Below, one piece after another: positions 41,902-49,064 of a DNA stretch of 64,000 bases. The stretch is from Candidatus Moraniibacteriota bacterium (GTDB lineage: Bacteria; Patescibacteriota; Minisyncoccia; Moranbacterales; UBA1568). The stretch is from the NCBI GenBank assembly GCA_008012175.1, contig SSEF01000011.1, positions 6,413 to 70,412 of the forward strand. The letters are read 5' to 3'. Positions within the stretch are counted from its first letter, which is position 1. Each line of letters starts with the position of its first letter. The notes below the pieces were generated by a model. The model was given only the letters and a program-made list of their open reading frames with translations. It did not search any database and was not told where the DNA came from. A program made the position numbers and the translations under genes.

Positions 41902-44035
41902 TTAAAAAAAGACAAAATAGTTTTGGATTTGCACGTGGACTCGTCCGCGGTCCGGCGTCCATTCCATTATTTTTGGAGGAGGAGGCGCCGACGGCGGATG
42001 CTCGCGAGGCCCTTCTTGCGGCTCTTGTTGCTGCTCTTGTAGCCTAAACTGCTCTTGTTGCTGCTCTTGTAGCCTAAACTGCTCTTGTTGCTGCTCTTGT
42101 TGCCTAAACTGCTCTTGTAGCCTAAACTGCTCTTGTTGTTCCTCTTGTTGTAGATCTTGCTGCACCAGCTGCTGCGCACGCTGTTCCCTGGAATCGCACA
42201 TGCGCTCGGCGATAATATAAATCAAATCGTTCCAAAATCGCTGCTGCGCTCCCAACATATGAGACAGGCCGGTCTCAATGAGCTTGGCATGGCCCAGGGC
42301 GTGATGTATCGAGAAGGCTTGTTCCAGTAAATGCACGTTTAGCCGTCTCGGGTCTTCATCCGCCTGGTTTGTAGTCTCCACCGTCTCCTCTACCTCCTCT
42401 ACCTCTACTTCCGCCACTCCCTTGTGTTCCGTCGGTCTCGCTTGCTCCGCCACCGGATCCGCCACTCGCTCTGCTGACGGCGGGAAAATTCGGTCCATAA
42501 TCTCAAATTTCCGTCCCAACGCTCCGGCCAAATCTCGAACGGCCTCGTCCCTCGCCAGGTTGGCCAGGTTGGAGCCCAAGTGAGCCACTTGGATCGGACG
42601 GCTCGGAGGTTTCGGATGGCGAGCCATTCGGTAAAACGACGGCACGTCCAAATTGCACCACTTGCTGCTCTTCAAGTGTTCGCGGTGCCGAGAAAAAAGC
42701 CGCTCGACGCTAGGCTCGGCCAAAAAATCGTCGGCCGGCATGAGGGGCGAGAAGAGGCGGCGGAAAGGCATAATCACTTGGACGCGGACCTGCATGATAA
42801 AGTCATACAATTGAGCGTTAAAAGCGAACGAGAACGTCTCGTCCTTGTCGTCTTGATAAACGAATTTCTTGAGCGCCGACTTGAAGCGGGTCTTTGATTT
42901 GGCGTGGTTAAACTGTTTCTTGACGCACGCTCGAATCTCTGCCGCGTTCATCTCCAAATCGTACCAGGCCGGCGAGACGATGAGTTTCGGCAAATCGGCC
43001 TCGAAGCGGGTAAACCTAAAAGAGAAAGAGATGTAATGAGCGACTCGTTTTAGAGCGAGAAGGCCGACAAGGATTACCAGTCTTCGAAAAGGCATAGATC
43101 GTCGTGCAACTTTAGATTCGAGTTGTCATCGATATTGATGAAGGAGGCCACTTTGTGTTTGCACATGCGGTCGACCGCTTCAAATAGCTCGTTAATGTTG
43201 CGATAAAACTCGAAAGCCTCCCGCTTCGCCTCTCCTGCTCCGGCGGCCTCCTTCACCACCCTCGCCTCTCCTGCTCCTGCTCCCTTCGCTACTTTCGCCA
43301 TCTTCGCCGGCCTCGCTCCTCGCTCTGGCCAAAGCAGAGCCATAGTGGTCAGGTGAGTCTTTTTTGTGAAACCCAATCTGGAACCAAGAGGAGCCAGTTT
43401 CTCGGCACAATTTATCAGTCGGCTCGCACAATGCTCTATATATGAAAAAAAAAAAGAGAGAAAGGTAAGTAAAATGTGGAGAAAAAGAAAGGAGAAGGAG
43501 GGTAGGGCTAACTTTGGATTAGATTGGCCAGATTCTTTTTGATTTCGGCTAGTAAAATAAAAGCCTGCTTGGCACGTATATCCAGTCCAGCCATCAAGTC
43601 GAAGACCATGTCGAGCGAGCACGACAGCTGCCCGTCGTGAGGACGGTTCTTTTTATTTCGTCTATCGGTGGTCTCGGGAACATTGCCCTTTTTCTGCGGC
43701 CGAGGCTGACTGCTGGGCTGGCTGTTGAGTTGGCTGTTGGGCTGGCTACGGGACTGGCTGCTGGGCTGGCTGTTGAGTTGGCTGTTGGGCTGGCTACGGG
43801 ACTGGCTGCTGGGCTGGCTACGGGGCTGGCTACGGGACTGGCTGCTGGGCTGGCTGTTGAGTTGGGGCTGGCTACTGGGCTGGCTGTTGAGTTGGCTGTT
43901 GAGTTGGGTGGATTGGTCACTAAACTGCCTGGACCAACCAGACCGCCGTTTGTAAGACAGCCGCCGTTTTATGCTAGTTGCGGCTGCGGCATTACCGCTT
44001 CCGCAGTTGTTGATGTTTCCTTTCGTCGTAGTCAT
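41902..44035 (-). CDS. Hypothetical protein, proposed 3-exon gene (44035..43513, 43435..43078, 43015..41902).
   Basis: ORFs 43508..44035, 43074..43622 and 41902..43095 each end in a stop that overlaps a GT donor (AAAG|GTTAGC and TG|GTAATCC). Each is followed by a pyrimidine tract and an AG that restores an open frame in the next ORF. The products include SQPxSQ repeats and a QQEQFRLQEQ repeat. Confidence 0.4.
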
Positions 44036-44106
44036 GTTGTATATAAATGTATGTGCAAGTTTTATTGCAACTCGTTAAAATTTACTTTCTTATATAGAAA
44101 AGGAAA

Positions 44107-47406: not shown

Positions 47407-47469
47407 GTTAGAGAGAAAGAGAGAGCGAGAGAGACAGAGAGAGAGAGAGAGTAAAGCAACAAGAGTTTT

Positions 47470-49064
47470 TTATTTAAAAATAAGCAAAAAATCGGCGCTG
47501 ACAAAAGCCTCGAGCCCGGACAGCCGGCGCATGGCAAGGGGCTTGTTTAAATAGAAAAGCGAGCTCGTGTGAGCTTGGAAGAATTGCAAAATATAGCCTT
47601 CGGGGGCGTCCCGCATTCGCAGATACTCGGCGATCGAGTGCACTCTAAAGCTCTTGAAACGAGTTGGCTGGAACGGTAGCGTGGGACTCGTGAGCTCCTC
47701 CGAAGAGACCAGGCGCTGCCGCAGATAGCGATTGCCGGCCTTGTCGAAGCACACATAGGTCCGGTCGTCGACAAACTGGCAAAAGATCAACTCGACGGGA
47801 ACTTGTGTCACCCAGTCGAATTTTCGTCTTCGCAAATCGATTCGATAAATCTGGCCCGCGTTCTGGACGAGGAGGCAGTCGCCTTTGGAGAGGCGGAATA
47901 GACACATGTTGCCCATAGTCACGTTGCAGAACATGAATCGAACCCGCAGTTTCTCGTTGCTCCGCCACTCAAACAGGGCGTGGACGCCGGGCGCTGCTAT
48001 AGCCGGGGATTGGTTGAGTTCGTGGAAGAGGGGCTGGGGTCGCTCTACAACGACGACAAATTGTTTAGAGCTCTCTAAAGAAAAGAGATAAAGAGAGAGA
48101 GAAGATAGTTACTTGTTTGCTGCTGTTGCATGTCCCGCACAATTTGCTCCTCGAGCCGCTGCTGCCACAAAAGCGCTCGGACGGGCTCGGTCAAGGTGGT
48201 GAAGGAGCCACTCTTGCTCGCTAGGAGAGCCAAAAAATCAACGTGGACGACCTGCCGAGCGAGATCCGGGCTGCTCAAAACGAGCTGCTCGAGCTCGGCC
48301 GGAGCTCGAGACAGGTACGAGAGGCGAAAGAATCTTGAGTAGCCGCCCTTGGCGTTGCTCGAGAACGCGTCGATCGAAATCTGTTGGTCAAATTATCAGA
48401 GATATAGAGTGCATTTACATATAGAGGGCGCAGAGAGAGAGAGAGAGAGAGAGAGAGGAAAAAGTCAACTTACTAGGTTGGTGTTTATGGGCAGGGCCCG
48501 TAGCGAAAACACGTGCTGGAGGCGCTCGAGACAGGGCTCCATCAAAGAATAGTCGTAGACGCTCGCGAGGGCCAATTGGCAATAATACTTTAAAAAACTC
48601 TCCCGCTCGTAGGCGCTCGACATCTGCTCGTACTTGCGCCTCACAAATTCGACATGCTTCGGGTACGAGTGACGGAGGCGGCTGTGCGGCGACTTTAGGG
48701 CGGCCTCCTTGCCATTGTGGACCTCTTGCAGCAATTCGACCCGGGCCGGGTACAGGCCGCTCCGCACAACAAATTTAAAAAGAGTCAAGTCGGTCAGAGA
48801 CTGCAGCAACATTCGATACACGGCCTCCTCAAAGGGTGGCAGCGCCGCTTGCTTGCAGGCCGAGTTTTTTACATTTATATAGTTGGCGATGCCGCCCTCG
48901 CGCATCGCCAAAAAGAGCGGCAAGTCGACGCCGTCGATCGCCGAGAACGGGCGGGAGATTCCGAATAGGAAGGCGTCGCGCATGGTCGTTTCGAACGCGG
49001 ACAAGCAGGTCTCTTCCTGCTGCTGCTGCTGCTGCTGTTGCTGTTCTGTTAAAAGACAAGTCAT
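47470..49064 (-). CDS. Hypothetical protein of about 490 aa, proposed 3-exon gene (49064..48474, 48380..48113, 48074..47470).
   Basis: ORFs 48465..49064, 48075..48278 and 47470..47934 are joined in phase. The first junction is CTA|GTAAGT ... ACCAACAG, a 93-nt intron containing (TC)13. The second is A|GTAACT ... TTTTCTTTAG, a 38-nt intron. The reading frame is continuous across both junctions. An AT-rich promoter lies upstream of 49064. AATAAA follows the stop. Confidence 0.45.

Follow-up and report, generated by a model that had tools for sequence, protein, structure and literature searches.

Two genes with probable short GT-AG introns in eukaryote-type viral DNA deposited as a Moraniibacteriota genome

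Spliceosomal introns are already known from large DNA viruses that replicate in the nucleus. A short spliceosomal intron is carried by the DNA polymerase gene of the chlorovirus PBCV-1, and herpesviruses and alloherpesviruses combine dense genes on both strands, TATA elements and AATAAA gene ends with a few short GT-AG introns that break open reading frame (ORF) annotation. Pandoraviruses and a few chloroviruses are the intron-bearing exceptions among nucleocytoviruses (PMC12768974). The intron-rich mirusviruses (Mirusviricota) contain many GT-AG spliceosomal introns with a length peak at about 80 base pairs (bp) and branch motifs of the CTAAC/CTGAC type; TBP is common among them, few of their genes are matched by Pfam, and their reproduction is inferred to be nuclear (PMC12768974). 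Here, we describe two genes, A and B, in a stretch of 64,000 nucleotides (nt), "the window" (positions 6,413 to 70,412 of the 95,747-bp contig SSEF01000011.1, about one third of which lies outside it), which was deposited in the assembly GCA_008012175.1 of Candidatus Moraniibacteriota bacterium. Both genes very probably have three exons, with two short U2-type GT-AG introns between them, and belong to a eukaryotic virus (or virus-like element) with a large double-stranded DNA genome, whose transcripts would be processed in the nucleus. What is new here is the lineage, which has been filed as a bacterium.

A preliminary description of this DNA had proposed that six ORFs merge into two genes once segments beginning at their stop codons are removed as introns, one of them only 38 nt long. 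In this work, the proposal was assessed by comparison with related metagenomic contigs that had been assembled independently (L001-L006 and L014-L016). The polymerase of the window gave the first relatives (P0007 in L001, P0006 in L002 and P0005 in L003-L006), and exon 3 of gene B, searched exhaustively by phmmer, led to P0014 (L014), P0015 (L016) and P0016 (L015). L014 shares its sample with L002 and is syntenic with the window from an ATPase gene through gene B. A 3-periodic Markov coding model was trained on 24 long ORFs of the window, and strict intron-like segments were counted in the window and in 30 dinucleotide-preserving shuffles of it.

Exon-intron structure of genes A and B

Gene A joins ORFs 43508..44035, 43074..43622 and 41902..43095 after removal of 77 and 62 nt; its exons on the minus strand (44035..43513, 43435..43078 and 43015..41902) add up to 1995 nt and encode 664 amino acids (aa) in frame, with no internal stop. 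Gene B joins ORFs 48465..49064, 48075..48278 and 47470..47934 after removal of 93 and 38 nt, and its exons (49064..48474, 48380..48113 and 48074..47470, minus strand) give 1464 nt and 487 aa, likewise in frame and without internal stops. The frame is restored at 4 of 4 junctions, so that each downstream ORF continues in phase as had been predicted, and the motifs quoted in the preliminary description were all confirmed on the minus strand. The features are as follows, a slash marking a splice junction.

Gene A:
44089..44096 (-), TATA-like element TATATAAG, about 60 nt upstream of the ATG, putative promoter
43513..44035 (-), exon 1, ATG at 44035, 523 nt, ends in phase 1, Ser/Gln/Pro-rich tandem repeats, coding frame f1
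43436..43512 (-), intron 1, 77 nt, aaa/GTTAGC...CATATATAG/ag, 83% pyrimidine
43078..43435 (-), exon 2, 358 nt, frame f2 clear from about 43310 to 43080, peptide conserved with exon 2 of L014
43016..43077 (-), intron 2, 62 nt, ctg/GTAATC...CTCTTTTAG/g, Trp codon split tg/g
41902..43015 (-), exon 3, stop TAA at 41904..41902, QEQQQEQFRL-type repeat
41897..41902 (-), AATAAA over the stop codon, putative poly(A) signal

Gene B:
48474..49064 (-), exon 1, ATG at 49064, 591 nt, phase 0, homologous to L003, L014 and L015
48381..48473 (-), intron 1, 93 nt, cta/GTAAGT...CCAACAG/att, (CT)n tract, CTGAT 15 nt from the 3' end
48113..48380 (-), exon 2, 268 nt, ends in phase 1, ...F.L.Y(L/I)...VDF... conserved in L003, L014, L015 and L016
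48075..48112 (-), intron 2 in its 38-nt version, caa/GTAACT...TTCTTTAG/ag, donor well supported
47470..48074 (-), exon 3, stop TAA at 47472..47470, start at 48044 if the intron of 68 nt is real
47469..47474 (-), AATAAA over the stop codon, putative poly(A) signal

The ORFs end where they do because a GTRAGT donor itself holds stop triplets and introns are free of coding constraint, so that a stop-to-stop ORF finder ends an exon at or just inside the intron; the deposited bacterial-style annotation therefore shows six short ORFs. At the first junction of gene A, the last exon base (A, 43513) is followed by GT at 43512-43511 and TAG at 43510-43508, the ORF ending in CAA A/GT TAG. At the second, GT (43077-43076) overlaps TAA (43076-43074), the ORF ending in GAC TG/G TAA. 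In gene B, the intron 1 donor reads CTA/GTAAGTTGA, with GTAAGT at 48473-48468 and the stop TGA at 48467-48465. The claim that all of these stops are embedded in GT donors thus holds for three of the four, which overlap or directly follow a donor. It fails for ORF 48075..48278, which spans the whole 38-nt segment, with the donor at 48112, and whose stop is the TAG of the 3' splice site CTTTAG (48080-48075).

For gene A, the comparison is with its homologue in L014. Exon 1 of the homologue (5435..5585) also ends in phase 1 and aligns at an N-terminal MTT and at a C-terminal helix region, SL..L..D..K..L..I..L. Its intron 1 (91 nt, GTAAGT...GTGTAG) lies at the homologous place and in phase 1 as in the window, and its intron 2 (78 nt, GTATCC...CTCTTAG) splits the same Trp codon tg/g: the junction reads AAT ATT TG/GTATCC...CTCTTAG/G TTT ACA AAA in L014 and GAC TG/GTAATC...TTTTAG/G TTT ACC in the window. 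The peptides beside the junctions are conserved between window and L014 (FEFYRNINELFEAVDRM vs IIFWRGIDMLFVELDRL and WFTRFEADLPKLIVSPAWYDLE vs WFTKLDIDLPKIITSAAWVDLE), whereas the intron sequences are unalignable and differ in length. Exon 3 matches L014 at 6141..6482 by tblastn (46% identity, E = 4e-25), and the C-terminus is conserved as (I/Q)(E/Q)NYF..F. The Markov coding score along the gene passes from f1 to f2 to f0, with gaps at the proposed introns, and intron 1 contains a branch-like CTTAC motif 30 nt from its 3' end. Counted on the alignment, 73 aa separate junction 1 from an FxFxRxIxxLF motif in the window and 76 aa in L014, which supports 43436 as the acceptor, although this site resembles a TATA element and the donor GTTAGC is weak.

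Gene A intron 1 ends in TATATAG, which could also have been the promoter of a separate gene with its start at ATG 43343; this reading was rejected, since L014 carries an intron in matching phase at the same site and its exon 2 is of equal length. Tandem repeats run in frame through gene A at 41990..42180 (QEQQQEQFRL-type) and 43690..43930 (SQP(S/N/R)SQ-type), both on the minus strand, and are absent from the L014 homologue. Convergent to gene A and 7 nt away lies a gene for a P-loop ATPase of 405 aa (40677..41894, plus strand; Walker A GPTNAGKS, Walker B YFDDC), which is 48% identical to its L014 counterpart and has a weak match to FtsK (E = 0.03).

The spliced protein of gene B aligns to L003 at 38% identity (E = 4e-41), and exon 3 matched P0014, P0015 and P0016 with 45%, 47% and 33% identity in phmmer. 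Intron 1 follows PIN(T/S)xx in phase 0 and contains an in-frame stop in the window (93 nt), L003 (60 nt), L014 (63 nt) and L015 (75 nt). The L003 intron, GTAATT...CTCTAG, occupies the position of that in the window (LPINTPF/IHIKA vs LPINTNL/ISIDA), and the L015 intron, GTGAGT...TTTAAG, comes after FPINSHL. Intron 2, in phase 1, is shared by the window, L014 (62 nt) and L016 (66 nt, donor a/GTAACA vs a/GTAACT in the window). L015 has no intron 2: aa 37-486 of the spliced protein are matched there in one frame (E = 1e-30), and P0016, its uninterrupted ORF for exons 2 and 3, has an N-terminus resembling gene B exon 2, with a score that was reached in 5 of 2000 shuffles. Finally, the 31 residues that precede Met 47934, the first in the third ORF, are conserved in all relatives (FHELNQSPAIAAPG...RF), and no in-frame ATG, GTG or TTG occurs in the stretch before that Met. 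The conserved intron sites, the single frame of L015 and this conserved peptide without a start codon make the three ORFs of gene B one gene. The Markov coding frames are as expected for it. The merging of two sets of three ORFs into two genes is in this way borne out by intron positions and phases that are conserved in relatives, and by a relative that lacks one of the introns. Exon 3 of gene B is predicted at low confidence to be all-beta (AlphaFold from four sequences, predicted local distance difference test score 53).

As a class, the four segments of genes A and B have a G+C content of 32-44%, compared with about 54% for the window, and are 68-83% pyrimidine. They all start with GT and end with AG, as do six further introns of the window and seven in the relatives. 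The 16 introns measured besides the 38-nt segment are 60-105 nt long, and all 16 have a YTNAY motif within the range searched, 8-45 nt from the 3' end, this motif being short and degenerate and the pyrimidine tracts strong. The window contains 17 strict intron-like segments, compared with a shuffle mean of 2.9 (maximum 6); this approximately sixfold excess stems partly from the CT-rich tracts of the genome.

Intron composition tracks the genome: introns of the window are rich in CT microsatellites and have 32-50% G+C, and those of the relatives (L014, L003, L015 and L016) are AT-rich and have 22-38%. Sense-strand (CT)n-rich tracts also stand directly 5' of start codons, at 12232..12267, 25900..25929 and 28758..28798 on the plus strand and at 47409..47459, 63004..63052 and 32525..32584 on the minus strand. 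They often come right behind the AATAAA of the preceding gene and have no GT...AG flanks, and they may be a feature of the 5' untranslated region or of the initiator. CT tracts alone are therefore no marker of introns in this genome. A palindrome common to two intron regions, AGAGCTCT, was not enriched in the window (3 matches vs 1.25 expected; 13 of 100 shuffles reach 3).

The signals around the two genes recur across the window. A TATA-like hexamer lies 42-83 nt upstream of the ATG in about 15 of its 55 ORFs, and AATAAA lies at or near the stop in about half of the ORF ends, and within 60 nt of 0 of the 4 exon-terminal stops. Within 41890..41905, the palindrome AAATAAA-C-TTTATTT provides AATAAA on both strands, for gene A and for the convergent 40677..41894. 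In the mechanism that we propose, host RNA polymerase II, aided by the viral TBP at the TATA-like elements, would start transcripts downstream of these elements and carry them through all three exons to the AATAAA at the final stop. The host spliceosome would remove the pyrimidine-rich introns of low G+C content, and the AATAAA overlapping the last stop codon would direct cleavage and polyadenylation. That the host supplies the spliceosome, RNA polymerase II and the polyadenylation machinery, and that replication is nuclear, is inferred from such signals and by analogy with other nuclear DNA viruses.

The acceptor of the second gene B intron

The 38-nt intron proposed at 48112..48075 stands as far as its donor is concerned, which is secure and is supported by the homologous phase-1 introns of L014 and L016; its length is not established. 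An intron of 68 nt (48112..48045) would use the same donor, a/GTAACT, and the next in-frame AG (GTTGTAG/ag, with AG at 48046-48045). It keeps the frame and the junction codon AAG of the 38-nt form, and its product lacks ten residues, SSKQFVVVVE. The chances of this longer form are about even, the two acceptors being roughly balanced, and both 3' sites might be used alternatively.

In favor of 68 nt, the lengths of the nine other introns of the window span 61-105 nt, those of seven introns from relatives span 60-91 nt, and the counterparts of this intron are 62 nt (L014) and 66 nt (L016) long. Counted by hand, the junction would lie 7 aa before the conserved His of an H..QSP motif with the longer intron and 17 aa before it with the shorter one, the corresponding distances being 8 aa (L016) and 11 aa (L014), and polB intron 2 (described below) shows that an internal CT tract plus TAGAG can be skipped in this genome. 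On the other hand, the AG at 48076-48075 has a far better pyrimidine tract (93% over 15 nt vs 67% at the downstream site), the added 30 nt are just 50% pyrimidine and thus exon-like, and the linker is poorly conserved, which softens the argument from spacing. Introns of 15-30 nt occur in ciliates and nucleomorphs, so that 38 nt is short for this genome and not extreme for eukaryotes. If the 38-nt form is true, it is probably unusually short for an intron of a viral gene.

Alternatives to spliced genes

Several points weigh against genes A and B as spliced genes. The intron 1 donor of gene A, GTTAGC, is weak, its acceptor TATATAG resembles a TATA box, and the Markov score gives no clear sign of coding over the first approximately 100 nt of exon 2 of this gene. 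A homologue of gene A was detected in L014 alone, none being found in L015 by profile. The 38-nt segment of gene B falls 22 nt below the shortest of the 16 other introns and contains no CTNAY branch motif, only TTTAT. In addition, the excision of these introns in RNA is itself read from the DNA sequence.

Among the readings that dispense with splicing, the one that survives best, and is still very unlikely, takes the interruptions for frameshifts or decay, that is, for assembly errors or for pseudogenes in a degrading endogenous viral element of a protist, rather than for functional introns. It draws on the origin of the contig in a metagenome bin, and on the general lack of spliceosomal introns in nucleocytoviruses save decaying endogenous elements, pandoraviruses and a few chloroviruses (PMC12768974). 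Random damage of this kind is hard to reconcile with interruptions that are in every case GT...AG, low in G+C and rich in pyrimidine, or with exons that have stayed open and conserved, with 35-60% amino-acid identity between assemblies of separate samples. Nor does the window look eroded, with about one gene per 1.1 kb over 64 kb and no host-like stretch. It may be an integrated but intact provirus, in which case the gene models of A and B as spliced genes would stay unchanged.

A still smaller probability attaches to the six ORFs being independent genes, as in prokaryote-style annotation (for example the 397-aa E6Q06_01930), with coincidental GT...AG boundaries. Each ORF is indeed open, 41902..43095 has an ATG of its own at 43095, and a TATA-like motif lies upstream of ATG 43343. 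Independent genes would nevertheless have to share exon order, junction phase and junction codons in four or five independent assemblies in which the intervening sequence is not kept; they would also leave unaccounted for the fusion of gene B exons 2 and 3 into one frame in L015, the conserved peptide that precedes Met 47934 without a start codon, and the lack of AATAAA behind the internal stops. Self-splicing group I or II introns, or segments bypassed in translation, would explain the restored frames and nothing more and are next to impossible, since 38-105 nt is far below the several hundred nt of a catalytic group I or II RNA, no Rfam family reaches threshold in the window, and the boundaries are GT-AG with a pyrimidine tract.

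Origin of the DNA and comparison with described viruses

The only named database matches to the window are the proteins E6Q06_01930 (397 aa) and E6Q06_01975 (a 386-aa fragment of the polymerase), both deposited as "MAG: hypothetical protein" of Candidatus Moraniibacteriota bacterium and 100% identical to ORFs of the window. The window holds 55 ORFs of at least 80 aa, densely arranged on both strands. No tRNA was found in it, and an Rfam scan at the gathering threshold returned 0 families, group I and II introns included. Pfam identified the following genes.

51580..54047 (+), family B DNA polymerase
55328..56752 (+), TBP
16599..17618 (-), PCNA
23857..24432 (-), bZIP factor
24638..25474 (+), protein kinase (Ser/Thr, eukaryote-type)
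4418..5794 (-), ankyrin protein
12268..16143 (+), RCC1/LamG protein
22630..23766 and 25930..26607 (both +), two proteins with a tail-collar domain
2660..3322 (-), 2OG-Fe(II) oxygenase
26681..27178 (+), nucleoside deoxyribosyltransferase

Where uninterrupted genes and bacterial content would mark a bacterial genome, the window has GT-AG introns, TBP, PCNA, a bZIP factor, a eukaryote-type kinase and AATAAA gene ends. Given this gene content, the lack of tRNA and Rfam matches, and named matches that are confined to fragments from a metagenome-assembled genome, the window derives from a eukaryote-type virus (or virus-like element) and was mis-binned and mis-annotated as a bacterium. TBP, PCNA, bZIP and RCC1 point to a virus of a protist. 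The kinase ORF 24638..25474 covers the Pkinase profile in part and is followed by an overlapping ORF in another frame, 25113..25874; this locus (24638..25874, plus strand) may be another split gene.

Further introns were located in the same genome. The polymerase gene of the window aligns to the polymerases of L001 and L002 in two pieces in different frames, separated by polB intron 1 (53053..53144, plus strand, 92 nt, GTATTG...GTCAAG). Its removal gives the junction GKYIIK/GFFKRSYAPPCRTFLAE vs GKFIIKGLFKRSYAPPCRTFLAE in these relatives. This intron is absent from L001 and L002, whose polymerases P0007 (705 aa) and P0006 (710 aa) are contiguous, and is present in L003, where the alignment is interrupted by a gap of about 55 nt; it is thus a presence/absence polymorphism among close relatives. 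PolB intron 2 (53760..53864, plus strand, 105 nt) is common to the window, L001 and L002 and absent from more distant polymerases. The gene upstream of gene B (49122..51589, minus strand) has three exons, with introns at 49917..49848 (70 nt) and 49415..49355 (61 nt). Across the first of these, an L002 ORF runs on without a break (39% identity over 682 aa, E = 1e-168), and an L001 ORF bridges the second. In the gene for a helicase of the SF1 type (59834..62502, minus strand), an intron of 83 nt (61592..61510) lies between Walker A and Walker B, just before Walker B, and L001 has an AT-rich intron, GTAAGT...ACAG, at the same codon.

Other observations concern the same loci. Spliced, the gene upstream of gene B ends at 49122, not 49174, with the last codons TAC ATA TAA (TAC ATA TAG in L003), which double as a TATA-like motif about 60 nt before the gene B ATG. 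A candidate intron of 76 nt lies at 33660..33735 on the minus strand (cag/GTAAGC...CTCTTTAG/gac), near the 3' end of ORF 33601..35184, where unspliced read-through meets a stop. The polymerase, viewed over 51682..53052, is short (about 720 aa when spliced), and its N-terminal approximately 190 aa are acidic and of low complexity. Its palm and fingers alone match family B enzymes, best Pol alpha (E = 2e-15), and neither Pfam nor a PDB profile search detected an exonuclease domain.

The consequences for users of the deposited record, which carries the label of a candidate-phyla-radiation bacterium, are direct. Bacterial-style gene calls cut the DNA polymerase, the helicase and at least four other genes at introns, and users of E6Q06_01930 or E6Q06_01975 as bacterial sequences are misled. 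The relatives also form a small natural experiment on the turnover of viral introns, with some introns fixed in position across 30-45% protein identity and others present or absent between close genomes, and a comparative test of this simplicity can validate introns of uncultured viruses without RNA data.

Placement by similarity searches yielded little. Pfam gave nothing significant for the spliced proteins A and B, and word-index protein searches with them returned a self-match or nothing, probably because poly-Q in gene B and the Ser/Gln repeats crowded out other candidates. No relatives came up when IMG/VR was scanned with gene B, or when IMG/VR and GTDB genomes were scanned with a polB profile; in JGI metagenomes, the polB profile met distant polymerases only (24-33% identity), which were useless for synteny. 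We tentatively raise the possibility, which we consider less probable than not, that the contig and L001-L006 and L014-L016 form an undescribed clade whose members are large DNA viruses of protists with replication in the nucleus, and are recognizable neither as nucleocytoviruses nor as mirusviruses. If so, the clade would have a short Pol-alpha-like polymerase without a detectable proofreading domain, would rely fully on host RNA polymerase II (with viral TBP and TATA elements), polyadenylation and splicing, and would gain or lose introns fast enough for the change to be caught between sister genomes.

Compared with the Nucleocytoviricota, the window has a divergent and short polB with no detectable exonuclease domain, and a possible packaging ATPase in the gene with the weak FtsK match; none of the core genes of nucleocytoplasmic large DNA viruses (double-jelly-roll capsid, A32 ATPase, VLTF3, D5 primase-helicase and RNA polymerase) was found by Pfam in its 64 kb. 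Herpesviruses and alloherpesviruses show the same layout of signals and introns, but no protein similarity to them was found, and the samples here are environmental, from a biofilter and other metagenomes. The mirusviruses resemble the window as environmental large DNA viruses of protists with short GT-AG introns, TBP and few genes that Pfam matches. They differ in that no HK97-type capsid, portal or terminase was found in the 64 kb by Pfam, which may miss them, in that the intron-rich mirusvirus orders are reported without a DNA polymerase while the window encodes one, and in intron density, about 0.16 per kb in the window vs up to 0.65 per kb. As in mirusviruses, intron presence varies among the relatives of the window, as seen for polB intron 1 and gene B intron 2. 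Pandoraviruses, Mollivirus and chloroviruses are likewise large DNA viruses of protists and algae in which a minority of genes carry short spliceosomal introns that are removed by the host, as would be the case in the window.

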